Below the pieces are notes generated by a model. The model was given only the letters and a program-made list of their open reading frames with translations. It ran no database searches and was not told the origin of the DNA. From a virus (lineage: Duplodnaviria; Caudoviricetes), in the IMG/VR virus record IMGVR_UViG_3300025836_000010, positions 1-61,572 of that record: a stretch of DNA of 61,572 bases. One strand, written 5' to 3'. How positions within the stretch are numbered: the first letter of the stretch is position 1; every line of letters starts with the position of its first letter. The position numbers and the translations under genes are program-made. This document shows, piece after piece, positions 3,917 through 57,728 of this stretch.

Positions 3917-4070
3917 ACCCGCCCCCTGGTGGTGTCTCTCCAAGAACCCCGCACAGGATGATGATTTCGTCGTGAACGTCGCCCATGTTCTCGGACATCA
4001 TCAGTCCTGCAACGACATTCTTGAGTGCTTGATTCTCACCACTCGTCACGGTGTCTCCCTCCACACTCAC
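3864..4070 (-). CDS. acidic hypothetical protein
   Basis: GTGA-coupled to the rtcB stop. Confidence 0.55.
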   Translation of the reverse strand: MSVEGDTVTSGENQALKNVVAGLMMSENMGDVHDEIIILCGVLGETPPGGGFIDGWDDGEFGRFFSDR

Positions 4071-5242
4071 GCCTTCACGACGGCGAGCGGCCGCAGTTTC
4101 TTCGTGATCCGCACGAGGTCCGCTTGATTGGCCATCACAACGTCGATGTCATGGTACGCCTGCCGACATTCCTCGGCAACGTCGGCCTTCTTCACCTTGT
4201 ACAGGGCGATGTCCGCGGCCTCCATCTCGGCGATCACGTCAGCGGCTGGAATCGCCCTCTGCGCGGCCTTGCGCCCCATCGCCCGCCCGGCCCCGTGTGA
4301 ACATGACATGAACGACTCGCGATTGCCCAGGCCCTCGCCGATGTAGCTGGTACTGCCCATGCTGCCAGGAATGATGACCGTCTCGCCGTCGCGCGCCCTG
4401 ACGGCTCCCTTCCGGTGCACCATCACGTTCTTGCCGAAGTGGTTTTCCATGGTCGCGTAGTTGTGGTGTATGTCGATCTCGTCGCCCCATCCGATGCCCT
4501 CGCGGTACAGCACGCTCTGAATGGCGTGCATCATGTGCTCGCGGTTGAGATAGGCGAAGCGCAGGCAGGCGTTCATCTCGGCGAGGTAGGCTTGGCCCTC
4601 GTCTGAATCGAGCGGCAGGAACGCCAGTTCGTGATCCTTGGGCACCGACGAATGCCAGCGCGCGTTCATCTCGATGGCGAGTGCGTTGTAGTGCTTGGCG
4701 ACTTGGAAGCCGACGTTGCGGCTACCTGAGTGGAGCATGAACCACGCCATGTCGTCTTCGTCTGCCTGCGCCTCGATGAAGTGGTTGCCGCCGCCAAGGG
4801 TGCCGATCTGAGTCAGGGACTTCTCGTACTCGCGCTCCAGTATGGGCAACCGTCCGTCTTGGCCGTTGATCAGTTCCTGTCCGGCCCAGTCGGGTTGCTC
4901 TTCCTGGTGGTGACTGAAGCCGGTCGGGATCGCGCGCTGGATATCGTGCATGATGGCTTCGCGCTTCGCCATGAACTCGTCGACTGTGCATTCGAGCGGC
5001 CATGTTCTCATCCCGCAGCCGATGTCAACGCCGACCGCATTCGGGATGACGACTCCCTGTGTGGCGAGCACGCCGCCTATCGGCATCCCGTAGCCCTGAT
5101 GTGCGTCGGGCATGATGGCGACGTGGCGGAAGGCGAAGGGGAGATCGGCAAGATGCCGCGCCTGCTCCATCGCGCCCTCTTCCATGTCGTCCGTCCATAT
5201 CTTCAGCGGCACGCGTCCGGTGGCATCAATCTGCATGGTCAC
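4067..5242 (-). CDS. rtcB: RtcB-family 3'-phosphate/5'-OH RNA ligase
   Basis: MPDAHQGYG, VGVDIGCG, GTLGGGNHFIE, LHSGSR, HHNYA, HRKGA, IPGSMG, SHGAGR motifs. Confidence 0.96.
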   Translation of the reverse strand: MTMQIDATGRVPLKIWTDDMEEGAMEQARHLADLPFAFRHVAIMPDAHQGYGMPIGGVLATQGVVIPNAVGVDIGCGMRTWPLECTVDEFMAKREAIMHDIQRAIPTGFSHHQEEQPDWAGQELINGQDGRLPILEREYEKSLTQIGTLGGGNHFIEAQADEDDMAWFMLHSGSRNVGFQVAKHYNALAIEMNARWHSSVPKDHELAFLPLDSDEGQAYLAEMNACLRFAYLNREHMMHAIQSVLYREGIGWGDEIDIHHNYATMENHFGKNVMVHRKGAVRARDGETVIIPGSMGSTSYIGEGLGNRESFMSCSHGAGRAMGRKAAQRAIPAADVIAEMEAADIALYKVKKADVAEECRQAYHDIDVVMANQADLVRITKKLRPLAVVKA

Positions 5243-5520
5243 CCCACCTCTATCGCCAGCGCGTGTTCATCCACCGCCCGGATGGCCCGATTCAGCGTGT
5301 CGATATTCGTCACCAACGGGTTCCGCGACATCTTCGTGTAGCAATCCACCTCCGTCTTCAGGTTCGCCAGCTCGAGCTTCGCCGACATCGAGCGGATGTT
5401 CTGACGGTGGGCGCGGCTTCTCCGCTGTAGCCGGTCCACCTCGGTTGTCAATGCGGCGATGTACGCCATGGACTCGGCCTTGGCCATCTTGCCGACTTCT
5501 GATTTGGTAAGGATGTTCAC
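5239..5520 (-). CDS. coiled-coil hypothetical protein
   Basis: Coupled between the two ligase genes. Confidence 0.7.
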   Translation of the reverse strand: MNILTKSEVGKMAKAESMAYIAALTTEVDRLQRRSRAHRQNIRSMSAKLELANLKTEVDCYTKMSRNPLVTNIDTLNRAIRAVDEHALAIEVG

Positions 5521-6527
5521 GTGGTCCCCCTTGGGTCTAGTGTCACGGTTGAGTTAGCGCCCGTGATCGGGTCTGTAACCGTTATGGACGAGAGTTTCTG
5601 TGGTCCCGGGTCCGCCTCTTTCTCATCCGCGAACACATCCGCCATCAGTCGCTCCTTGTACCATTCGGGCGCCCCGGCGACGGACTTCCGCAACAACGCG
5701 CCGCCGAACTCCCGCCAGAGGAAGTCCTTGATGGTGTCGATCTCTTCCTCCGTGATGTCGCGCTGAATCTCCTTGATGAGCGGCCCGATGTCGCGCGGGG
5801 CGTTCTCAAGGCGACCGTCGTCGCGCAGGTGCTGAACGGCCTTCTCCCACCGCGCCTCGCTCCGGTATTGGTCCTGGAACACGTCCCACTTTCCACGCGC
5901 CGTGTTCTCGATTCCCCAGTTCTTCTGGTGCTTCTCCTTGAACGCCTCGCTGACGTATTTGCCGCACATGAGCGGGATCGGTTGGCCGCCTAGCAGAAAC
6001 GGGCGCTGGTAGTTCTTCACGACCACGCCCTCGACGGTGGTGCCGCCGAGGTAACTGTCCGTGGCGAGCAGTTCTTGGAGTTGCGCCACAGCCTCGACCT
6101 TGCCCCGGTACAGGAGCGGTACCGCTTCCAGCCCGATGCTCGCCGCCAGATCGGCAAGCTCGCGCCAGTCCGAGACGAAGGTGCCCCCTGGCGTGCTGGC
6201 GCCGAAGACGGCGATGTTGTTCTGCGGGACGCACTCATACGCCAAGGTGTTGTGCTTCGGCTTGCGCAGATACTCGCCGTAGAAGATCACGTTGTTGGGC
6301 AAGTCGAGGCTGAGCACGTAGTCGGCGGCCAGATCGAACATCCGGTCGACCGCGCCGGCGTGCTGTTCCTTGCCCTTCGACCGCATGTGGAGTTCGCCGC
6401 TGACCCGCCCAAACACCCACTGCGAGCCGTCGACCTTCTCGGTCACCTCCACGTCGTCCTTGAACAGGTCGGCGATGTAGTCCTGGCCGATGGAGAATAT
6501 CTTGGGGAACGCGCTGAATCCCACCAA
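5517..6527 (-). CDS. ATP-dependent RNA ligase, Rnl2-like
   Basis: Nucleotidyltransferase motifs: I EKVDGS, III FYGE, IIIa VFG, IV EGVVVK, V KYVSEAFKE; N-terminal FSAFPKI; AGGAGG SD. Confidence 0.85.
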   Translation of the reverse strand: MVGFSAFPKIFSIGQDYIADLFKDDVEVTEKVDGSQWVFGRVSGELHMRSKGKEQHAGAVDRMFDLAADYVLSLDLPNNVIFYGEYLRKPKHNTLAYECVPQNNIAVFGASTPGGTFVSDWRELADLAASIGLEAVPLLYRGKVEAVAQLQELLATDSYLGGTTVEGVVVKNYQRPFLLGGQPIPLMCGKYVSEAFKEKHQKNWGIENTARGKWDVFQDQYRSEARWEKAVQHLRDDGRLENAPRDIGPLIKEIQRDITEEEIDTIKDFLWREFGGALLRKSVAGAPEWYKERLMADVFADEKEADPGPQKLSSITVTDPITGANSTVTLDPRGTT

Positions 6528-8394: not shown

Positions 8395-9549
8395 CTACAG
8401 TATCGCGGCGATGATGTCCCTGACGCGATCCATAGTTTGCGGGTCGACATGCGAATACGTCGACTGCAGCACGCGCGACGAACTTTGACCGAGGATGCGG
8501 GACAGCTCCTCGTCCGGTATCAGCCCCCGCAGCCGGGTCGCATACGAGTGCCGGCAAACGTAGGGCGTGAGTCCCGCGAACTCGCTGCCCGCGATCAGCC
8601 TGCGCCACGCCAGCCGGAACGCCTGCACCGTCCATGGCCCGCCGGGGTTCTTACGCGGGTCCAGCGACGGGAACACGTAGCCGACCTCCGACCATCTGCC
8701 GAGCCGCAGCTTGTACTCGGATTGCCGGGCCTTGTGCGCCTTCAGCATGGAGATCAGGTTCGGCGGCAGGGGCACGTCCCGCTGGCCGCGCCTCGTCTTG
8801 GTCGTCTTCCGCCGCGGCTCCCGGCCCCGCGCCGCCTCGAGGTTGTGGTAGACGTGACAGGTGCCCGCCTTCGCGTCGATGTCCTGCCACAGTAGCGCCA
8901 TTGCCTCGCCGGGGCGGACTCCGGTGCCCAGCATGAACATGGTCGCGTCATGCACCTGCTGACGACGTTCGGTAGTCATGTGACCACAATCAGTAGTCGC
9001 CATGTGCCTCAGCAGCGCCTGGGCCTCGTCGGCGCTCAGTGCCCGCTTCTCCTGCGTGTCGATCTGCGGCTTGTCCCGCCGCCTCAGCGACGAGCAGGGG
9101 TTGCGGAACAGGAGGCCGTCGGTCGTGGCCTGGTCGAGAATCGTGGCAAGCAGATTGGCGACCTTACGAGCGGTGGTTCCGGACAGGCCCGCATCCGCGA
9201 GGTCGCCATGGAATGTGCGGACGACCATCGGCGTGATGTCGACGAGCTTGTAACCGCCGAGCCGGGGCGTGATGTGCGCGTCCAGTATGTAGGCGTGGTG
9301 TTGGTGGGTCTCCGGCGAGCCGCGGCGCAGTGATTCGGCGTACCAGTGATCGGTGTACTGTTCGAACTGTCCTGATTTCCCTGACAGTTGCCCCCTGTCG
9401 CGCTTGGTGAGCAGTTGCCGCTCCAGCCGCTTGGCTTCGGCCTCGGTGCCGTGGACGGTCCTCGAGATAGCCTGTCGCTTGCCGTCGGGGCGCGGGCTGG
9501 CGCGCAGACGGACGCGGTAGAGGCCGGGGGCTAGGCGGTGGACGCTCAC
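8395..9549 (-). CDS. int: tyrosine integrase
   Basis: N-terminal arm-binding-like domain (DGKRQAISRTVHGT), SAM-like domain, TGVRPGE, YVCRHSYAT, LGQSS, TYSH; GTGA-coupled start. Confidence 0.9.
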   Translation of the reverse strand: MSVHRLAPGLYRVRLRASPRPDGKRQAISRTVHGTEAEAKRLERQLLTKRDRGQLSGKSGQFEQYTDHWYAESLRRGSPETHQHHAYILDAHITPRLGGYKLVDITPMVVRTFHGDLADAGLSGTTARKVANLLATILDQATTDGLLFRNPCSSLRRRDKPQIDTQEKRALSADEAQALLRHMATTDCGHMTTERRQQVHDATMFMLGTGVRPGEAMALLWQDIDAKAGTCHVYHNLEAARGREPRRKTTKTRRGQRDVPLPPNLISMLKAHKARQSEYKLRLGRWSEVGYVFPSLDPRKNPGGPWTVQAFRLAWRRLIAGSEFAGLTPYVCRHSYATRLRGLIPDEELSRILGQSSSRVLQSTYSHVDPQTMDRVRDIIAAIL

Positions 9550-9833
9550 TTGGGCTTGTGCTTGGCAATTTCCTCTTCGGCCAAGTCGCGCCGTATCCAT
9601 TCCGTGCCAGTAGGACCCCGCAGAACGTGCCCGCGCTCAGCCTCGTATGCGCTCTTGTACTTGGCCGCGAGGCGGGCGAGGGCGAGGATGGCGGCGTCGT
9701 CAATCTCAATGATGTTGAGCGCATGTTGATGAGATGCCTTGGCGTCGTACCAACCACGGGACATGCCGACCTTTTCCGCCTCCGCACACTCCACGCCCGC
9801 CGCCTTGAGGACTTCTCTCGGATCGTCAGTCAT
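9546..9833 (-). CDS. small hypothetical protein (DDAAILALA variant of modular family)
   Basis: Coupled ORF in the int operon. Confidence 0.65.
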   Translation of the reverse strand: MTDDPREVLKAAGVECAEAEKVGMSRGWYDAKASHQHALNIIEIDDAAILALARLAAKYKSAYEAERGHVLRGPTGTEWIRRDLAEEEIAKHKPK

Positions 9834-10440: not shown

Positions 10441-10673
10441 AGTGTGTCATAATAGGTGTCACGCCGTTTTGCACGCCAAAGTGGCGAGTTACGGAAAGTA
10501 GGGATTTGCAGGTATTTGCGTGGTGGGCGACGTTGGAATTGAACCAACGACCTCGTGCTTGTCGAGCAGGCGTAAATGGTGCTCTCAGGCACGCTGAGCG
10601 TTTCGCCACGCACAAGATTTTGAGACTGGCGAATCTGCTAGGCTCGGTTAAGTGTGTCATTTTATGTGTCACG
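10441..10673. mobile_element. attP: tRNA-Val(GAC) 3' core flanked by integrase arm-type repeats
   Basis: Core 10521-~10568 reads TGCTCGACAAGCACGAGGTCGTTGGTTCAATTCCAACGTCGCCCACCA on minus; direct repeats AGTGTGTCAT-N5-GTGTCACG at 10441-10463 and 10651-10673 (20/23 identical). Confidence 0.85.
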
Positions 10674-22422: not shown

Positions 22423-22460
22423 AAAAAAGGCGCCCCGCCACTGGATGGTGGCGGGGCGCC
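22423..22460 (-). terminator. intrinsic terminator between convergent operons
   Basis: GGCGCCCCGCCAC-CATCCA-GTGGCGGGGCGCC-TTTTTT. Confidence 0.85.
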
Positions 22461-22502: not shown

Positions 22503-22622
22503 CTACCCCTGCGTTACCAACCCGCACTGATTGCACTTGTATTTGTATCCATCGTAGTGGAAGTCTTTGCCCCCGCACTTTCCACACTTCAGGTATCTAA
22601 GCGGCTTCTTGCCTCCGTGCAT
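22503..22622 (-). CDS. 39-aa Zn-ribbon protein (below the ORF track cutoff)
   Basis: MHGGKKPLRYLKCGKCGGKDFHYDGYKYKCNQCG. Confidence 0.5.
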   Translation of the reverse strand: MHGGKKPLRYLKCGKCGGKDFHYDGYKYKCNQCGLVTQG

Positions 22623-22672
22623 GATCGAGGCCCTCACCTACTTCTCAGTAGCTACTCTTGGCGATGGCGGCG

Positions 22673-22882
22673 TTACTCTGTGCCGCTACCGTAGTCCTTG
22701 ACGAACGGGTTGAGCCACTTGTAGGCGAACGCGATCAGCGCGGCGATTCCAGCGGCGGCGATTCCCTTCCACTGTCCGGCGCTCAGGTCGAAGATGTGAG
22801 CACCGACGGCGGTTAGTTCACCGAGGACTGTCACAACGAAGACGAGAATGAGCGTCTGAGCGATGGCCTTGGTTCCTTTCAT
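22673..22882 (-). CDS. holin-like two-TM protein
   Basis: Two hydrophobic helices and C-terminal WLNP..KDYGSG; GGGAGG SD. Confidence 0.7.
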   Translation of the reverse strand: MKGTKAIAQTLILVFVVTVLGELTAVGAHIFDLSAGQWKGIAAAGIAALIAFAYKWLNPFVKDYGSGTE

Positions 22883-22929
22883 TCATTCACCTCCCTAGAG
22901 ATTCCATGATGCCAGTTGGCTTTTCATGG

Positions 22930-23676
22930 TCAGCGGACCTCGTCCACGACGCCGAGGCGGAGACTCTCGTCCGAGTCCAGCCACCAGTCCTTGCGCCGCC
23001 AGCGGTTGGCAAACTGTTTGGCGGTCAAACCCGTCTTTGGCTGCGCCTTCAGCGACCGCTTGCTGAAGATGGCCAGAACGCGGTCCTGAATCTTGCGCAC
23101 GAACGCGACCTCGTCCTCGACCTCGCCGATCTTGCCGCCCGCGCCGAAACTGACCTCATGAATAAGGACATATGCCTCGCGTCCCATCACGCGCACGTCG
23201 CCGGCCTGCAGCAGTATCCCGGCCATGCTCGCCGCGTAGCCGATGGCGACCGTCGTGATTTTGTGGCCCTTGCCACGCAGGAACATCAGGTAGTCGAACA
23301 GCGCCATGCCCGCGATGACCTCGCCGCCGGGGCTATTTAGGATGATCTCGATGTCGCACTTCGGGCTGTCGCGATTCCAAAACGACAGTTCCCTGACGCA
23401 ACTGGCAACGGACGACTCAGAAACCTTGCCGAGAAACTGGTAAACATGGTGGTAGTTGTCCTGGGCCAACTCGCGCTTGCGCAGTTCCAGTGTCCGCTGC
23501 AACTCGATGGCTCCGGACGCGGCACCATGCTCGAACAGCAGCGCCTCGGCTGACATCTTGCGCGCCTCGGCCTCGCTCTTCGCCGCTTCAGCAAGTGCCG
23601 CGACGGCCTCGGCCTGCGCCTTGGCGACGTTGGCCTTGACCTCTTCTGGACTAAGCTCTCGGGCCTTTTCCGTCAT
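22930..23676 (-). CDS. clpP: ClpP-family serine protease with N-terminal coiled coil
   Basis: LNSPGG, GYAASMAG (Ser), LIHE (His), RKDWWL (Asp), GVVDEV. Confidence 0.9.
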   Translation of the reverse strand: MTEKARELSPEEVKANVAKAQAEAVAALAEAAKSEAEARKMSAEALLFEHGAASGAIELQRTLELRKRELAQDNYHHVYQFLGKVSESSVASCVRELSFWNRDSPKCDIEIILNSPGGEVIAGMALFDYLMFLRGKGHKITTVAIGYAASMAGILLQAGDVRVMGREAYVLIHEVSFGAGGKIGEVEDEVAFVRKIQDRVLAIFSKRSLKAQPKTGLTAKQFANRWRRKDWWLDSDESLRLGVVDEVR

Positions 23677-23720
23677 TTGTCACTCCCCCGGTTTGGATTC
23701 GGTATGATCCTCATGCGTCC

Positions 23721-23749
23721 AGTTTAGGCGGTCAGAGTGGGGACGGAGG
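23721..23749 (-). promoter_or_regulatory. phage-specific promoter copy 3 (CCTCCGTCCCCAC-N10-TAAACT)
   Basis: Perfect 13-mer at 23737-23749; extra partial copy at 23756-23765. Confidence 0.8.
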
Positions 23750-23774
23750 GGAATGGTGGGGACGGCCATGAATA

Positions 23775-23854
23775 TGGTGGAGCCGGACGGATTTGAACCG
23801 TCGTCCCCGGGTTGCCCATCAGGCTTTGGCCCAAGTCGAAACCAATTCGGCCCC
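23775..23854 (-). ncRNA. tmRNA tRNA-like-domain-only RNA (80 nt)
   Basis: GGGGCCGAATTGGTTTCGAC...GGACGACGGTTCAAATCCGTCCGGCTCCACCA; G3:U70, A73, CCA, T-arm, ssrA-type D-loop, short P2a; no mRNA-like domain. Confidence 0.88.
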
Positions 23855-24080
23855 ATATTGCTGAGCGGCCCCCATGTCATTACCAGCCGCTCGCTGCCCT
23901 CGCGCCTTTTTCCGTCTCGTGCCGCATTGCGATAACTCGAACCGGCTTGTGGACGGTCGCCGTCTCTGGGGCGTCCCCCATCGCGAGTGCCCGGCACCGG
24001 GATTGAACAGCTCGGGCCGCATTACCTAAGCAGGCCCTTCTCACCGGCATAGCATTGTGTACAGGTGTCCACACTTGCGG

Positions 24081-24968
24081 CTAACTGTGGGCACTTGTTA
24101 CCAAACCCCCCTTGCCGCAGAGTGCCGTATCCTCGTCTTGAGACGCGGTTGCGGGACTCACTAGCTCGTCGCCGAACCTATCAACCAGGTCATAGAACTC
24201 GCCATCGGACCATTCCTCGGCCCGTTCCCTGCGCAGCCCTGGCGAATCCTTCCGGAATACCTCGTCTCCGTGTTCGTCCGCGCCGATCCCGAGTACCCTG
24301 ATGAGCGTCATCCCGCGCAGCTCATCGTCGCTGAGCACGTCCGGGCGCGGAGAGTGCAGGTCTTCGATGTGCCGGGCCAGCCACAGCGCCTGCTTCCACA
24401 ACGGGACGCTGAGTGTTTCCTCTTCGGCGTCCGATTCCCGTTTGGGCAACAGTACCGATTCCGGCCCGTAGTCGAGGTCCGTCACGGCCCCGCACTCGGG
24501 GCAGGACTTGACAGTCACGGGGCCAACGTCAATGCCGGCTATCGCGGCCTCCGTGTAGAAGTCGACGGTCGGGTGTTCGCGCGACCCCTCGGACACGCAA
24601 CTTTCTACGTGTTCGGGCACTGCGTTGACAACGGAATCCGTTACCTGCGCAGCCTCGTCGCACCCCGTCGCGTGCGGCATGTTCGGCGCGGAGCGGCAAT
24701 CGGGGCACTGGTCCGCGCAGAAGGTACTACTCTCGGTAGTGCCGACTGCGCGCTCCGGTCCGTCGCTTGGGTACCGCTCGCTCGGCCAGCAGTCCTGGTA
24801 CGTTGGGTCGGGATTACTGTCATTCCGTTCGCGTAAGGTCGCAGATTCAGGTAGTTCTGGCGTTGGCACGGGCACATAGCACTCATCTCGCCAATGCCAG
24901 GCGGGAGGTGTCGAGGTGCTCTGGACGCGGCTCCCGGTTGCGTCCTGAATCTCGCCGAGGCATCCCAT
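24081..24968 (-). CDS. hypothetical protein (low-complexity N-terminus, CxxC, helical C-terminal domain)
   Basis: Long ORF within the operon. Confidence 0.6.
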   Translation of the reverse strand: MGCLGEIQDATGSRVQSTSTPPAWHWRDECYVPVPTPELPESATLRERNDSNPDPTYQDCWPSERYPSDGPERAVGTTESSTFCADQCPDCRSAPNMPHATGCDEAAQVTDSVVNAVPEHVESCVSEGSREHPTVDFYTEAAIAGIDVGPVTVKSCPECGAVTDLDYGPESVLLPKRESDAEEETLSVPLWKQALWLARHIEDLHSPRPDVLSDDELRGMTLIRVLGIGADEHGDEVFRKDSPGLRRERAEEWSDGEFYDLVDRFGDELVSPATASQDEDTALCGKGGLVTSAHS

Positions 24969-51792: not shown

Positions 51793-53007
51793 TTACAGGA
51801 GCGCCAGGCACTTGTTCGTGGATGTCTGGAACAAATCGGCATCCATATAGCAGCTGAACCGAACAACACTCTCGAACGCGGTGAAATACACGCTGTCGTC
51901 GCGCTCGATGTTGACGCCGCCGATGCGACGGACCTTGTACTCAGACACGTCACCAAAGGTAACGGGCTTGAGGGTTGTCGTGCAGGCCGGATACGCCGCG
52001 TCCTCGAACAGGGGCTTGCCGAGGATGCTGCCGATGCCCTTGTCCTTGGCGATGTCGTGGAGCAAATAATCGCCGTCGGCGTTCTTGAGCTTGAAGATGA
52101 TCGCCAGTGCACCCGAGCCTGCGATGAAGGAACCGCGCGAACGCGAGCCCGGCATCACGGACAGGTAGAGGTCGATGATCTCGTCGCAGGTGAACGTGGT
52201 CTTGGACGCAGCCGTCACGCCAGTAGCAGTCTTGGTCGGCAGGCCGTCCGGCATGGTGGTGCCGGTGCCCGTAGCCAACTGAGACGCGACCTTCGTGGCC
52301 AGGGCGCGACTTGCGACCTCGCCTACGGCCTGCATGATGTTGACCTGAGAGTCGCGAATCAGCTCTTTGGTCAGGGTCATGTAGCCGTCCTGGCGGTACG
52401 AATCGAGCTGAGCCTGCGCGAACACAGGGTTGGTCAGGGTAGCGGCGGTACGCTCAGCCGTCTGCGCGGCGGAAGCGTCAGTCGCGAGAATCGGCCAGAG
52501 CATCGTGTTGCCGTCGGCCGTGTCGACGTAGGTCGGACCCGCCTGCAGGACGCCAGACTCGGCGTTCTCGTGCCAGATGACGTTGCTGATCAGCGTGCTG
52601 GCGTAGGTATAGCCCGCCTTCACGGTCTTGGACGTGTCCTTGAACCACTCTTCGTCGGCGCGCTTGGTGAAGGGCACGGTCAGGTAACGCTTGACCGGAC
52701 CATCCTCAGTCGGCGCGGAGCAGAAGCGTTCGACGGAACGCAGCATCGGGTCGACGGCCGCGGGGGCCCCAGAACCCTCTGCATGGATCACGGACTCGAG
52801 CTTGGCGCGGGACTCAGCAACTTCCGCGTCCATGCTCATGCGCTCGGTCTCGTCCTTCTCGAGCTGGGCGAAGCGCCGGGCGTCGGCAACGGCGCGCTGG
52901 TAGCTCTCTTCAAGCTCGCCTTCGCCGTTGTAGTCGACGTTCTCCGCGATCTCGCGGGCGTCGGTGATGGCCTTGGCCTTGCGGTCAAGAATGTCCTTGA
53001 TAGTCAC
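51793..53007 (-). CDS. HK97-fold major capsid protein
   Basis: N-terminal coiled delta domain; KELIRDS; GTGTTMPDGL; KLKNADGDYL; ILGKP; FGD. Confidence 0.92.
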   Translation of the reverse strand: MTIKDILDRKAKAITDAREIAENVDYNGEGELEESYQRAVADARRFAQLEKDETERMSMDAEVAESRAKLESVIHAEGSGAPAAVDPMLRSVERFCSAPTEDGPVKRYLTVPFTKRADEEWFKDTSKTVKAGYTYASTLISNVIWHENAESGVLQAGPTYVDTADGNTMLWPILATDASAAQTAERTAATLTNPVFAQAQLDSYRQDGYMTLTKELIRDSQVNIMQAVGEVASRALATKVASQLATGTGTTMPDGLPTKTATGVTAASKTTFTCDEIIDLYLSVMPGSRSRGSFIAGSGALAIIFKLKNADGDYLLHDIAKDKGIGSILGKPLFEDAAYPACTTTLKPVTFGDVSEYKVRRIGGVNIERDDSVYFTAFESVVRFSCYMDADLFQTSTNKCLALL

Positions 53008-53011
53008 TTGG

Positions 53012-53755
53012 TCACTCTCCTATTTCAATTGCGAGTAGCTCGATCTCGCGGAGTGCCAAGTCCCGGCGGCTGAGTGTCACTGACGGCTCAGGCGTGGTGT
53101 CCTCTAGCGGCTCAACGATGTCTTCGATGTCATCCGAGCGATGCCCGGAGTCGTCTTCATGGGTGGGGGTCCACAGGCGGGCGGTCTCGCCGGCCTCGTA
53201 TGCTTCGCGGACCTCTTCGATGCTGTAGCCCGACAGATTGGCACAGCGTAGGAACAGGCGCGCCGACACGTCAGTGTCCTCATATGCGGGGAACACGACC
53301 GGGCTCACGTCGTACAGTTTGGCCTCGCGCACTGTGATGAGGGGAAGGTCGGTGGTATCCGGGTCCGCCGACTCGCGAGTTTCCTTGATGGTCTCGAAAG
53401 CGAAGCTGGACTGGGTGATGTCGCCGCGGTCGATGGACGTCCAGAGGTCGCGGGCGGCCTGCGTGTCGGGCAGGTCGATTTCGTAGGCGAGGCCGGACAG
53501 GTCCTCGACCAGTCGCAGGGTGCCGGCCTTATTCCGGCCCAAGACGATGTTCGTGTCGTGGTTGAACAGGGCGCGGATGTCGTTCTCTTTGATTGACTTC
53601 TTGAACGCCCTGGGGGCGATCTGCTCACGGAACATTCCCATGATGGTCGTGGGCGAGTTGAACATCGCGGCGTGCCCGATGAGGGTGTTGCCGCCGTCGG
53701 TGCTGCGGATATCGAACTCCGTAGCCACTGAACGAACTTGCATGTCGGTCTTCAC
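53012..53755 (-). CDS. HK97-family prohead protease
   Basis: GHAAMFN, ALFNHD, QSSFAF, YDVSPVVFPAY. Confidence 0.93.
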   Translation of the reverse strand: MKTDMQVRSVATEFDIRSTDGGNTLIGHAAMFNSPTTIMGMFREQIAPRAFKKSIKENDIRALFNHDTNIVLGRNKAGTLRLVEDLSGLAYEIDLPDTQAARDLWTSIDRGDITQSSFAFETIKETRESADPDTTDLPLITVREAKLYDVSPVVFPAYEDTDVSARLFLRCANLSGYSIEEVREAYEAGETARLWTPTHEDDSGHRSDDIEDIVEPLEDTTPEPSVTLSRRDLALREIELLAIEIGE

Positions 53756-53812: not shown

Positions 53813-53885
53813 TGGTAGCTGGGGCCAGGGTTGAACTGGCGAAAGCAGGGTTATGAGCCCCGCCGGGGAACCGTCCCTCCCAGCG
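53813..53885 (-). tRNA. tRNA-Met(CAT), initiator-like, with reduced D-arm
   Basis: C1xU72 mismatch, three G-C pairs above a CTCATAA loop, T-arm GCCAG-TTCAACC-CTGGC, encoded CCA. Confidence 0.8.
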
Positions 53886-53890
53886 ACGTG

Positions 53891-54142
53891 CTACTTACAC
53901 TTGGGGCAGAAAAAGTCCCTGCAGATCGCAGGCCGCGATTCGTAGATGGCACACGACGAGCCGAGCTGCTTGTTTGATCTCAGGTGCAGGCACTTCGACT
54001 GGCCGTACACTTCCATCAGGCCGTCCGCGCGGTCACGCAGCGTCAGGCCGTGGTAGCTCAGGAACCTCGCCGTGTCTTCGCTCTTGCTCATGGCCACGCA
54101 GTAGTCGCGACAGCAGGCACCGCAGCGGGTACAGCCCGTCAC
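53891..54142 (-). CDS. YkgJ-family Cys-cluster (CxxCxxCC) protein
   Basis: CTRCGACC...C..L...CAIYESRPAICRDF. Confidence 0.85.
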   Translation of the reverse strand: MTGCTRCGACCRDYCVAMSKSEDTARFLSYHGLTLRDRADGLMEVYGQSKCLHLRSNKQLGSSCAIYESRPAICRDFFCPKCK

Positions 54143-55413
54143 GGGGCGGGCTCCGGCGGCGCGGGCTCCGCGGGCGCGGGTTCTGGCGGCGCGGGCGGCT
54201 CCGGCACCATCAGCATCCCGTCCGGGCCGATGGGCGCGGATGCCGTGTTGATGTAGTGCGCGTCGCCGCCGGGGAAGGGATTTTCGTCTTCCTTGTTGAG
54301 GATCCAGTTCGGGCTCGCGGCGCCGACGTTGGCGAGTTCCTTGTAAAACGCGGCCCTGGCGGCCATGTCGCCGCGCATCAGGGCGTTGAGGTTGAACTTG
54401 CAGTACCAGTCCGCGTTGCCGCGCGTATCGACCGTCTGCGCGTAGTCAACGATAAGCGGCTTGAACGCGGCCTCGACGAACTTCACCCACGGCGCGAGCG
54501 CGAAGACCACGAAGGAAATCTGCATCTGCTCGATGCCGGTGCCCCATGAGGTCGAGCTGGTCACATCGGCGAGCATGTGCGGCGGGATGCCGAACCAACG
54601 CGCGACCTCAGAAACCTGGAACTGGCGCGTCTGCAAGAACTGCATCTGTTCGTTCGTTATCGACAGAGCGTTGACGGTCGCGCCGCCGCCGAGCACGGCA
54701 GTTTTGCCGACTTGGTCGAGGCCCGCGTGTAGGCGGTCGAAGCGGTCGGCTGTCTTCTTCGCCACGTCGTCGTCAACCTTGCCCGGCACCGTGATGATGA
54801 CGTTCGGCGTCGCGGCGTTGGCGAGCTGCTTGGATCCGTGCTTCTCGGCGCCAAGGCCGAGGCCGATGGTCTGGCGCATGTACTCGACGGGGGACAGGCC
54901 GCGCAGCGCGCCGGGCAGCATAATGCCGGGGATGTGCAGGATGTCGCGGCTGGTCAGCGTCCGGCCGTTGATCTCGTATATCTTCTCGCCGGTCTTCGGG
55001 TCGCGGTCGACGACCACGAGGCGCGGGTCGAGGGGCCACATCTCCTGCAGCGTGCCCCGCGCGTGCACCTTGACGGAGAACGAGTCGCCGCCGAGGAGGA
55101 TGGAGGCCATCGTCTGCTGCACGAAGCTCGGCCAATCCGTCTCGGGGTTCGGCTTCACCATCCATGGCGGCTTGGGGCGCACGAACGTCTTCGGGCCGAA
55201 GCTGACGTAGGAACCCACGGGAAGACTCGACATGCCGTGGCTGATGAGCCTGACCGCAGCGAACACGGCAGAGTAGGTCATCGCCGTCTCGTGACTTACG
55301 GGAATGCCGGTGTAGGACTCGGGACCGCTCCTGTCCCAGAAGACACCGGGGTCGCGCTGAGCCGGCGTCGTGGTGCCGAACCAGTTGAGGGCCGCGCGCT
55401 TCAAGATGCTCAC
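54139..55413 (-). CDS. HK97-family portal protein
   Basis: PNP, DILHI, GLSP, QFLQTR, ARWFGIPPHML. Confidence 0.93.
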   Translation of the reverse strand: MSILKRAALNWFGTTTPAQRDPGVFWDRSGPESYTGIPVSHETAMTYSAVFAAVRLISHGMSSLPVGSYVSFGPKTFVRPKPPWMVKPNPETDWPSFVQQTMASILLGGDSFSVKVHARGTLQEMWPLDPRLVVVDRDPKTGEKIYEINGRTLTSRDILHIPGIMLPGALRGLSPVEYMRQTIGLGLGAEKHGSKQLANAATPNVIITVPGKVDDDVAKKTADRFDRLHAGLDQVGKTAVLGGGATVNALSITNEQMQFLQTRQFQVSEVARWFGIPPHMLADVTSSTSWGTGIEQMQISFVVFALAPWVKFVEAAFKPLIVDYAQTVDTRGNADWYCKFNLNALMRGDMAARAAFYKELANVGAASPNWILNKEDENPFPGGDAHYINTASAPIGPDGMLMVPEPPAPPEPAPAEPAPPEPAP

Positions 55414-55556: not shown

Positions 55557-57298
55557 CCGTCCGTCCCTGTGTCTTCGCCGGGAATGTAGAAACTGGTTGC
55601 GTCATCCGCATTGGCCATCGAACGTTCCAGCGCGGAAAGCATGGCCATCACGCCGTCGATCTTGTCGGCGGACTTGGTGCGGCTCGGGCGTACATGGTCG
55701 TCGCGGTCGTACTCGGCGACGGCGCCGCTTATCATCCAGCGGGCCACGGGGTTTCCGCCGTGGTTGAGCCGCTTCAATGACAGCAGCGACTCGAGGTACT
55801 TCGCCGGCGCGTTCATGCCGCGATAGCCCTGCGACACGTCGGCCAGCTCCAAGCCCTGCTCGATAAACTCGCTGATGACCGGGTAGGAGTGGAAGTTGTC
55901 GTAGCCAATCTCGGTGTTGCGGAACTTCTCGCAGTCGGCGAACACCTGCGCCTGCACGTCGCGGTGGTCGATGAGGTCGCCGGACGTGATGGTGACGAAT
56001 CCGGCCTTGGCCCATGCCTCAATCTGCGGCCCCATGCGCTCGCGGGTGACGACGGCCTTCTCGGGTATCCAGAAGCGCCAGAGAACATCCGCGCCGAAGC
56101 CCTCGCCGTCGTCGTCCCACGGGAACAGCAGTGCCCACGCCGTGAAGTCCTGCGTGTGCGACAGGTCGAGGCCGCCGTAGAACGCGCGGCCCTTCAGATT
56201 CTCTTCGTTGATGAGGCCGCCGCAGCGGTCCCACGTCGGCATGTCAATCCACTTGGTCTCGGACGATACCCACTGATTCAGGCGCAGGCGGCGAACAGAG
56301 TGCTCTTCCGTGGCCGATGTCTTGGCCTTCGCGACGGAACTGCGCAAGTCGTCGGGGCGCAGGAACTCCCCGAGCGCCGGGTTCGCCAGCGGCCAGACCG
56401 ATTCATCCTGCCAGTCGGCATCAACGGGCACGCTGTAGATGAAGGCCAACAGGTCTTCGTCTTCGGCCAGGCCCTCGATGACATGGCGGGCGTGTTCGTG
56501 TTCGTCCCACGCCAGTCCCTCTTGACCGGACCCGGCGGTCGTAATCGCCATGAAGACGGGTTCGGTGCGCGTGCCCTGACCCTGCGCCAGCACGTCGTAG
56601 AGGTTCCTGGAGCGGTGACGGTGGACCTCGTCTACGCCCACAGCCGAAGGGTTCACGCCGTCGTTGTAGTCGGCGTCGGCCGACATGACCTCGTAGAACG
56701 CCTCGATCTGCGGGTGCAGGATGGTCTTGGTCGAGTCAGACCACTTGGCGCGCTTGCGCAGCACGGCGTCCTGCTTGACCATGCTGACCATGACCTTGTA
56801 GGTCTGGCCGGCCTGCTTCTTCGCGGCGGCTGCCGAGTAGATTTCGCCGCCGTACTCGCTTAGGCCGAAGAGGCAGTAGAGCAGGATGGCCGCGATAAGC
56901 TCGGTCTTGCCGTTCTTCTTCGCGACCTCGAACCAGAGGCGGAGAAACCAGCGCGTGCCGTCGCCCCGAACGCAGGCAAAGAACGTGAACACGATGACGA
57001 ACTGGAACGGATACAGGACGAACGGACAGCCGTAGTACGGCGCCTTCGTGTGTCGGCAGCGGCGCTCGATGAAGTTGACGGCGCGTTGGCCCTTGGCCTC
57101 GTCGACCTCATACCCGAGCTTGCGCAGCTCTGCGGACAGGGCCGGAGCGCGGGGGTCGAGGGCGTCGCGAATGTTCCGCGTGCCGGCCGCGGCGACGATT
57201 TCGGCAAGCCGTTCCTTGACCGCGCCGGGGACCGTCCTGTGCTTGGCTACGGGTTTGCGGCGCCGCTTCCTAGTCGATGCCGAGGTCGTCTTCGTCAT
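55553..57298 (-). CDS. terL: terminase large subunit
   Basis: Walker A AKKNGKT, Walker B VDEVH, ITTAG, GLDLS, KIDG. Confidence 0.95.
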   Translation of the reverse strand: MTKTTSASTRKRRRKPVAKHRTVPGAVKERLAEIVAAAGTRNIRDALDPRAPALSAELRKLGYEVDEAKGQRAVNFIERRCRHTKAPYYGCPFVLYPFQFVIVFTFFACVRGDGTRWFLRLWFEVAKKNGKTELIAAILLYCLFGLSEYGGEIYSAAAAKKQAGQTYKVMVSMVKQDAVLRKRAKWSDSTKTILHPQIEAFYEVMSADADYNDGVNPSAVGVDEVHRHRSRNLYDVLAQGQGTRTEPVFMAITTAGSGQEGLAWDEHEHARHVIEGLAEDEDLLAFIYSVPVDADWQDESVWPLANPALGEFLRPDDLRSSVAKAKTSATEEHSVRRLRLNQWVSSETKWIDMPTWDRCGGLINEENLKGRAFYGGLDLSHTQDFTAWALLFPWDDDGEGFGADVLWRFWIPEKAVVTRERMGPQIEAWAKAGFVTITSGDLIDHRDVQAQVFADCEKFRNTEIGYDNFHSYPVISEFIEQGLELADVSQGYRGMNAPAKYLESLLSLKRLNHGGNPVARWMISGAVAEYDRDDHVRPSRTKSADKIDGVMAMLSALERSMANADDATSFYIPGEDTGTDG

Positions 57299-57728
57299 CC
57301 GACTTCGGCAGTGCCAGCCGGAGGCGCGACGTAGGCGATAGTCCGAGCTCGGAGATGTAGAATTTGAGTTGGGTGCGACATTGATTCGCGGCAGTCACGG
57401 CGGGGTTCTTCTGCTCGCCCCGTTCGGTCATCACGCCGAAGCCGTGTTCTGCTACCTCCCGGTTGGCGTGGTCAAGCTGCGCGCAGCAGATGCAGTAGTC
57501 CCCCAGGAGGCGCGCGTCGAGCAAGGCGATGATCCCCAGCTTGTCCAGCTCGGGAACGACGCGCTTCCATTCGGCCCGAGCGTCTCGGGACATCGTGTTA
57601 CGGCCCAGGAGCTTCATCCACTTCGGCTCGGGCGGTGCCTTCGGGTCGGCATGGACGCCGGTATCGGTGGCGCCCCCGCCGCCCTGAATGACCTGCAGCG
57701 CGGGCGCGGTCGGCTTACGGCCTCGCAT
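57270..57728 (-). CDS. terS: terminase small subunit, P27 family
   Basis: MRGRKP...EWKRVVPEL...NPAV...ELGLSPTSR; GAGGAG SD. Confidence 0.9.
   Translation of the reverse strand: MRGRKPTAPALQVIQGGGGATDTGVHADPKAPPEPKWMKLLGRNTMSRDARAEWKRVVPELDKLGIIALLDARLLGDYCICCAQLDHANREVAEHGFGVMTERGEQKNPAVTAANQCRTQLKFYISELGLSPTSRLRLALPKSDDEDDLGID

Follow-up and report, generated by a model that had tools for sequence, protein, structure and literature searches.

A tag-less tmRNA-type RNA and a ClpP-like protease encoded side by side in a phage genome: probably two accessory genes that evolve separately

The virus record IMGVR_UViG_3300025836_000010 (Duplodnaviria; Caudoviricetes), analysed here over its whole length of 61,572 bp (hereafter the window), carries two adjoining minus-strand genes within positions 22,930 to 23,854: a short RNA gene that corresponds to the tRNA-like domain (TLD) of transfer-messenger RNA (tmRNA), and a gene for a ClpP-like serine peptidase. 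A previous reading of the DNA, made from the letters and the open reading frames (ORFs) only (hereafter the sequence-only reading), had proposed that the two constitute a linked two-part system. Based on the comparison of both genes with their relatives in viral and metagenome sequences, we consider it probable that two genuine phage accessory genes lie here, each with an evolution of its own: a tag-less tmRNA of the type found in mycobacteriophage DS6A and an actinophage ClpP-like protease. Their neighbourhood in this genome would then be due to chance. The features at the locus, in the direction of transcription, are:

23858..24002, minus strand: conserved structured non-coding RNA, immediately 5' of the TLD (copies in the related loci L123, L136 and L138; compensatory changes)
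23775..23854, minus strand: TLD-only (tag-less) tmRNA gene, 80 nt (Rfam RF00023, 65.1 bits; covariance model R1, 76.7 bits; family covariation)
23677..23774, minus strand: 98-nt spacer from the CCA end to the ClpP-like start codon, with a GGGGGAG ribosome-binding run (sequence; terminator scan)
22930..23676, minus strand: ClpP-like S14 serine peptidase, 248 aa, with a helix at residues 10-70 and a core with S150, H173 and D230 (Pfam, PHROGs, AlphaFold2)

The tag-less RNA and its relatives in viruses

The 80-nt RNA matches the Rfam tmRNA model (RF00023) at 23775-23854 on the minus strand with 65.1 bits (gathering threshold 47, E-value 3.9e-23). The match spans model positions 1 to 374, but 18 nt stand in for 312 of the internal positions, and therefore the TLD alone is present. 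The letters themselves show an acceptor stem of 7 bp with G3.U70 (this pair being the alanine identity element), an analogue of the tmRNA D-loop, a T arm, a 5-bp P2 stem which closes the 18-nt loop, a discriminator A and an encoded CCA (an ACCA end), while ARAGORN makes no call at this position. All the elements by which the tRNA-like domain of a tmRNA is recognised (acceptor stem, G3.U70, T arm, CCA and a score above gathering) are hence present, and those of the mRNA-like domain (resume codon, tag frame with stop, pseudoknots) were not found in it. Given that an 18-nt loop stands in place of 312 model positions and that there is no consistent in-frame stop across the family, we regard the RNA as a TLD-only derivative and not as a working tmRNA. 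The sequence-only reading had described a TLD-only mini-tmRNA with a CCA end about 100 nt before the ClpP start codon, and both parts of this description hold, the gap being 98 nt. A minimal one-codon tag (GCC followed by UGA in the window loop) was considered and rejected, since an in-frame stop occurs in just one of 50 motif-bearing loops.

A search pattern for TLDs with a short internal gap matched 116 viral contigs, and the 7-bp acceptor stem is perfect in 107 of these 116 TLDs (distinct sequences, n=93). From 24 of the pattern-matched TLDs we made a covariance model, R1, which scores the window RNA at 76.7 bits and with which 98 TLDs were aligned. In this alignment, paired cells amount to 97.2% (against 67.2% in shuffles), the covariation score is 0.716 (0.137 in shuffles) and pairing falls to about 50-58% when the partners are slid, all of these being values for an alignment fitted to the model. 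The G3.U70 pair is found in 95 of 96 TLDs and the P2 helix covaries at all 5 pairs; in the search pattern, the 5' G3 and the stems were free, whereas U70, the T loop and the flanking TTCGAC and GGAC were prescribed, so that the latter columns are uninformative by themselves. Judged from these alignments, selection acts in the TLD family to keep the helices and the G3.U70 pair. Most internal loops measure 15-21 nt, and an in-frame stop is present in one of the 50 loops with an A-rich NCC motif; with loops so short and stops so rare, the class is one without a reading frame. A blastn search of the 80-nt RNA against 50,697 phage records returned just 28-33-nt matches to tRNA or attP-like 3' ends, which means that the family is missed by sequence search alone.

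The tmRNA Website paper (Hudson, Lau and Williams 2014, PMC4131195) enters mycobacteriophage DS6A as 'TLD only' and states that a molecule similar to that of DS6A strongly inhibits tmRNA, perhaps via SmpB titration; the statement on the TLD-only DS6A RNA and tmRNA inhibition is repeated in a 2025 database paper (PMC11915505). In the literature searched, DS6A was the sole named phage with a tag-less tmRNA that we found. We located its RNA at JN698994 28478-28560 (Rfam 43.2 bits, R1 53 bits). The window RNA shares the characters of this type, namely a complete TLD, a single short RNA (~65-90 nt) and a conserved structure, and it aligns with DS6A and 96 other TLDs; as far as sequence and predicted structure tell, it belongs to this known, little-described class. 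Both RNAs are ~80 nt long and lack a tag frame; they have in common the acceptor stem, the T arm, the D-loop analogue and a P2 stem that is short and carries a small loop. Both phages have temperate, actinophage-like genomes of ~60 kb that encode RtcB. They differ in that the window RNA encodes its CCA whereas the DS6A RNA ends in ...ACTA, in their Rfam scores (65.1 versus 43.2 bits) and in their surroundings: the window TLD lies behind a structured leader and adjoins the ClpP-like gene, while that of DS6A precedes a DNA polymerase III gene in a genome without a ClpP-family gene.

With full-length tmRNAs (RF00023; for example those of Bxz1, Wildcat and Bongo), the window RNA shares the TLD, the alanine identity pair and an end-to-end match to one covariance model, but it lacks the pseudoknots, resume codon, tag ORF and stop codon. 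CDS-less tmRNAs also exist in organelles (jakobid mitochondria and the ~65-bp plastid forms of Mallomonadaceae, as described in PMC11915505), and these have likewise lost the mRNA-like domain and kept the TLD. However, the organellar forms are the only tmRNA of their organelle and are thought to help in rescue, whereas the phage RNA acts beside an intact host tmRNA, and for this reason competition is to be expected.

Full-length tmRNAs were also seen in the course of this work. Three of ~413 nt lie on related low-G+C phage contigs with ClpP-like genes (L144 1501-1913, minus strand; L145 1171-1585, plus strand; L209 6195-6607, plus strand), and the tags that ARAGORN assigns to them are unusually long, with 30 residues ending in ...AALAA, ...AAMAV or ...VAVAA. 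Additionally, the cluster M phage Bongo (NC_041970.1) has an Rfam tmRNA match of 98.4 bits at 54934-55336 on the plus strand.

The ClpP-like protease and its family

The ORF at 22930-23676 (minus strand) encodes 248 aa from an ATG preceded by the Shine-Dalgarno-like run GGGGGAG. Its product matches the Pfam family CLP_protease (PF00574) at 2.9e-25 (89.6 bits, cut-off 20.2) over residues 82-247, corresponding to profile positions 22-178 of 182. In the alignment with Bacillus subtilis ClpP, S150, H173 and D230, which we take to be the catalytic residues, fall on its Ser, His and Asp; among 57 homologues the first two are invariant and D230 is at least 90% conserved. The Ser-His-Asp triad read earlier from the sequence is thus confirmed. 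In the AlphaFold2 model (mean pLDDT 93.2), residues 10-70 form a single helix which is followed by a ClpP core, and Foldseek places this core close to solved ClpPs (root-mean-square deviation of 1.4-2.0 A over ~177 columns, E-value about 1e-16, target TM-score 0.81-0.91). ClpP is a tetradecamer that docks ClpX, ClpA or ClpC, and its N-terminal axial loops gate the pore and contact the ATPase. Since the Pfam match begins at position 22 and the modelled residues 10-70 make up one helix, this canonical N-terminus appears to be absent from the window protein. When compared with bacterial ClpPs (B. subtilis 3KTI/3TT6, E. coli 1TYF), the protein therefore shares the fold and the aligned Ser-His-Asp, but is only 24-26% identical and has the first 21 profile positions (the gating region) replaced by a helix of ~60 residues.

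The best PHROG of the protein is phrog_94, 'head maturation protease' (3e-54). A distance of 29 kb separates its gene from the head module, in which another enzyme is encoded:

53012..53755, minus strand: HK97-type prohead protease of the structural module (phrog_80, 5.2e-51), with the portal gene (54139-55413) and the major capsid gene (51793-53007) on either side

A prohead protease gene is expected between the portal and major capsid genes, and this is where the HK97-type gene stands and the ClpP-like gene does not. Because the HK97-type protease occupies the structural module, the ClpP-like gene is a second protease gene, and the separate prohead protease which the sequence-only reading had placed some 30 kb away is indeed there. 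Pumpkin, besides gp103 (its member of the ClpP-like family), similarly encodes another enzyme for head maturation, gp12, between its portal and capsid genes. As such an enzyme exists in both genomes, the 'head maturation protease' label given by PHROGs and RefSeq is most likely a carry-over. A role of the ClpP-like protein as virion maturation enzyme, which the earlier reading had named as an outcome that would count against it, is not borne out by gene position, with the capsid enzyme sitting elsewhere.

Relatives of the protein are numerous. At E <= 1e-5, tblastn gave 968 phage records that contain it; 360 records, 312 of them from mycobacteriophages, pass E <= 1e-10. Identities to the window protein are 46% in cluster E, 48% in X, 43% in L, 33% in J and 31% in M. 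Metagenomes contributed 1835 homologous proteins at E <= 1e-10, most of which span the N-terminal helix too, and a search of genome contigs found a single 7.4-kb contig of a metagenome-assembled genome, which is the same DNA as L127 and does not identify a host. The GenBank submitters name the family 'ClpP-like protease', and RefSeq names Pumpkin gp103 and Gaia gp118 (46-48% identical to the window protein) 'head maturation protease'. In the annotated cases examined, the gene is always in the non-structural arm: after SSB in Pumpkin, before a DnaQ-like exonuclease in Gaia, after RNA ligase in Faith1 and LittleE, and after Erf and exonuclease genes in Bongo and Wildcat. Pumpkin gp103, Gaia gp118, Faith1 gp90, LittleE gp159 and Bongo gp58 all share the PF00574 core with the window protein (30-48% identity), and the family resembles it in its replication/recombination neighbourhood, its separate capsid protease and, for most members, an A/E/K-rich N-terminal helix, but differs in having no adjacent tmRNA-type gene. 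By sequence and gene neighbourhood, the window protease is a member of this known, annotated actinophage 'ClpP-like protease' family, encoded outside the capsid module. We found no tested function for the non-capsid actinophage ClpP-like protease in the literature.

The neighbourhood of RNA ligase and ClpP-like genes recurs, in direct or nearly direct succession, in clusters L and J (L231, Faith1 gp88-gp90, and L232, LittleE gp158-gp159), and in cluster E (L001, Pumpkin gp95...gp103) the RNA ligase is 3 kb upstream of the ClpP-like gene.

Distribution of the two genes and context of the locus

The linkage of the two genes was surveyed from both sides. On the RNA side, a tblastn search with the window ClpP gave no match in 116 TLD loci (80 with 2-kb flanks and 36 with 0.3-kb flanks). 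PF00574 was then searched over whole TLD-bearing records, L031 and L075 being set aside, and matched in 5 of 98 (4 of 49 and 1 of 49); none of the 98 has it within 9 kb of the TLD, the nearest lying at ~9 kb by arithmetic on the reported coordinates. The DS6A genome has no PF00574 match either. On the protease side, the scan with R1 of 16 viral loci that have a relative of the ClpP-like gene gave a TLD at no more than 4 kb for two of them, L123 and L136, and in 80 metagenome ClpP-like loci, with up to 10 kb on each side, a TLD was found in one (L151, which is the same contig as L136) and a full tmRNA in one (L209). No tmRNA stands out above noise in the genomes of Pumpkin, Gaia, Faith1 and LittleE, all four of which have the ClpP-like gene. 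The two-part system postulated from the sequence is not supported by these counts (no ClpP within 9 kb in 98 TLD records, one TLD in 80 ClpP-like loci). The survey of linkage which had been suggested as its test yields no conserved adjacency, with order and distance changing even within the window's own clade.

In this clade, defined by a ClpP-like protein at least 73% identical to that of the window, the TLD and the ClpP-like gene are neighbours in three of seven close relatives and in two different orders. The window has the structured RNA, then the TLD and then the ClpP-like gene; L123 and L136 have the ClpP-like gene, a small ORF, the structured RNA, a TGTATAAT box and the TLD, so that the TLD lies 3' of the ClpP-like gene by 600 nt (L123) and 400 nt (L136) and has its own TGTATAAT box. 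In the closest relative (the complete 94-kb genome G050, ClpP 88% identical), the TLD is 83% identical to that of the window and lies 19 kb from the ClpP-like gene. This TLD (L143 1150-1581; G050:C1 about 57187-57618) heads a Tyr-Ser-Ser-Asn tRNA array, with a homologue of the window RNA ligase within ~1.3 kb. No TLD was found in the locus DNA examined of L149 (part of a 48.6-kb contig), L150 and L152. Around the protease, the similarity between the window and G050 stops 20 nt upstream of the start codon, which suggests that the RNA cassette is an insertion relative to G050, or the reverse.

The structured RNA (~150 nt) consists of a long-range helix, two inner hairpins and a 3' hairpin, and its four copies (window 23858-24002, minus strand; L123 5156-5307; L136 4797-4924; L138 about 1960-2110) show compensatory changes at 8 of 28 predicted pairs. 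It stands upstream of the TLD in the window, L123 and L136, at a spacing of 3, 41 and about 230 nt, respectively, and occurs without a TLD in L138. It has no Rfam match, and two pattern scans of viral contigs returned the same three contigs and no further copies.

Downstream of the protease gene, the locus continues with three minus-strand features:

22673..22882, minus strand: hydrophobic 69-aa ORF 3' of the ClpP-like gene (ORF list; G+C at third codon positions 0.74)
22503..22637, minus strand: 44-aa ORF with CxxC...CxxC (weak zinc-ribbon match to PF08271, 16.1 bits, below the cut-off of 29)
22429..22460, minus strand: intrinsic-terminator-like hairpin of 13 pairs, followed by a T run (terminator scan)

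The 69-aa ORF, for which no PHROG or Pfam family was found, is probably in the same transcription unit as the ClpP-like gene, and the hairpin likely marks the end of this unit; the ORFs flanking the TLD/ClpP-like region yielded nothing from Pfam and PHROGs. The terminator scan found no terminator-like site on the minus strand between the TLD and the ClpP-like gene. With none here and a strong one after the unit (22460-22429), co-expression of the two genes by read-through is plausible, and a common transcript in this genome may include the structured leader RNA as well, as a local arrangement and not as a conserved module.

The window is a complete virus record (CheckV 100%; 'linear' in IMG/VR) with 64% G+C, and the majority of its genes are on the minus strand. 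Near-identical DNA occurs in peat and soil metagenomes, and 19 DNA runs contain positions 22900-24100 wholly or partly; no RNA run is listed for these positions. PHROGs identified the small and large terminase, the portal, the HK97-type prohead protease and the major capsid protein. The other genes recognised in this way code for RtcB (4067-5242), an RNA ligase (5517-6527), a tyrosine integrase (8395-9600), two DNA methyltransferases, and RecT-like and exonuclease proteins. RtcB and the RNA ligase lie side by side at 4067-6527 (minus strand) with a 93-aa ORF between them. At 10521-10565 (minus strand), ~0.9 kb from the tyrosine integrase, there is a 3' tRNA gene fragment that comprises the T arm, the acceptor strand and ACCA; it is likely the attP core for integration into a host tRNA gene. 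The TLD was also considered as attP and rejected, both of its halves being present and a separate tRNA 3' fragment lying near the integrase. A tRNA-Met (CAT) gene at 53813-53885 (minus strand) is located within the head module, between a small post-portal ORF and the prohead protease gene.

Two accessory genes or one system

The reading that we favour, and regard as probable, is that of two independent accessory genes brought together by chance. In this case, the TLD would be processed like a tRNA, charged with alanine by the host alanyl-tRNA synthetase through G3.U70 and bound by the host SmpB. By analogy with the published similar molecule, it would compete with the host tmRNA-SmpB, leaving the products of stalled ribosomes without a degradation tag, and its minimum effect would be to titrate SmpB. 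The ClpP-like protein, encoded among early recombination and replication genes, would be a putative peptidase acting on host or phage proteins early in infection, independently of tmRNA tags as far as the evidence goes.

Several observations weigh against a chance encounter. When the 16 viral records with a ClpP-like relative are searched as a whole, three have a TLD and three a full-length tmRNA, compared with a reported rate of 2.3% of phage genomes carrying tmRNA (a figure given in PMC9004378). The three full-length tmRNAs lie 3-6 kb from the ClpP-like gene and have 30-residue tags with A-L-A-A-like tails; Bongo and Wildcat carry a ClpP-family gene and a tmRNA 13-14 kb apart; the carriers of tmRNA or TLD on the ClpP-like tree form three groups with non-carriers between them; and in the window itself no terminator separates the two genes, so that co-expression is possible. 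Nevertheless, we do not take this co-occurrence as shared function, because the cases reduce to three lineages, because Bongo, Wildcat and the tmRNA-less Faith1 belong to one family (Vilmaviridae), because phages rich in tRNA and accessory genes likely hold both by chance, and because the reverse test, from TLD to ClpP, is without enrichment. What is left is a loose co-occurrence, at the level of the genome, of the ClpP-like gene with tmRNA-type RNAs. One could imagine that the ClpP-like family and the phage tmRNA-type RNAs are tied functionally at the genome and not the operon level, with a helix-capped peptidase handling the products of a phage-controlled trans-translation, and that the leader RNA, TLD and protease of the window constitute one early 'rescue and proteolysis takeover' transcript. 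What speaks for this is that three separate ClpP-like lineages (the soil clade of the window, a marine clade and Bongo/Wildcat) carry tmRNA-type genes, either TLDs without a tag or full tmRNAs whose tag, of 30 residues, is unusually long; we give it a slim chance.

We likewise hold it unlikely that the TLD RNA and the ClpP-like protease are a functional pair in the narrower sense, the TLD blocking tagging and a helix-capped ring poisoning, replacing or redirecting the host Clp complexes. The proximity of the genes (adjoining without a terminator in the window, within 0.6 kb in L123 and L136), the tmRNA-type genes in three separate ClpP-like lineages and a modelled core close to solved ClpPs (1.4-2.0 A), in which the N-terminal gate region seems to be replaced, are consistent with it. 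However, it is weakened by the absence of a ClpP-family gene within 9 kb in all 98 TLD records, by DS6A (no ClpP) and by clusters E, X, L and J (a ClpP-like gene and no tmRNA). Within the window's clade, the TLD may be upstream, downstream or 19 kb away, and none was found in the examined locus DNA of the close relatives L149, L150 and L152. Moreover, the cultured cases (Bongo, Wildcat and Faith1) are all Vilmaviridae and so are not independent, and a tag-less RNA offers the protease no tag to read.

A different role of the TLD, which we judge improbable, would be that of a decoy or shield for the translation apparatus that draws off host defence factors recognising or cutting tmRNA/tRNA acceptor structures, or SmpB-like sensor domains, alongside phage RNA repair and not as an inhibitor of tagging. 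The window encodes RtcB and an RNA ligase and DS6A encodes RtcB, the RNA ligase homologue of G050 adjoins the TLD/tRNA array, and TLDs are frequent in phage tRNA arrays, with tRNA genes within 2 kb at ~17 of 60 TLD loci (overlapping mis-calls in L031 and L039 left out). According to PMC11090510, CoCoNuT restriction systems include SmpB-like domains, and the main target of RtcB is reported to be tmRNA. Yet just 2 of 49 viral records with a TLD encode RtcB, for which reason it was rejected as a general partner of the TLD, and the near-universal G3.U70 fits a need for charging that is not obvious in a passive decoy. We know of no defence system that targets a TLD.

Very unlikely, in our view, is that the TLD serves chiefly as a processing signal (a 't-element') cut by RNase P and the 3' tRNA-processing enzymes, so that the structured RNA in front of it is freed and the ClpP-like mRNA receives its 5' end. 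The conserved structured RNA does end 3 nt before the window TLD, but at 41 and about 230 nt in L123 and L136, and L138 has it without a TLD; most TLDs are alone or in tRNA arrays, and the family, which is matched by the tmRNA model, retains features that are specific to tmRNA and go beyond the shape of any tRNA. Finally, it is hardly credible that the ClpP-like protein is the virion (capsid or scaffold) maturation protease suggested by phrog_94 (3e-54) and by the RefSeq labels of Pumpkin gp103 and Gaia gp118, given the 29 kb to a structural module with its own HK97-type protease, the same situation in Pumpkin (gp12 versus gp103), the submitters' name 'ClpP-like protease' and the replication/recombination neighbours.

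Treating the locus as two genes and not as a module spares the field a false operon and leaves two separate questions, namely what the TLD does to tagging and what the substrate of the protease is. The non-capsid ClpP-like protease of actinophages is widespread, and no tested function for it was found in the literature searched. Tag-less phage tmRNAs, for their part, are barely described in print, yet they occur on more than 100 viral contigs with strong structural conservation, and this prevalence points to a common, unstudied phage interference with ribosome rescue.

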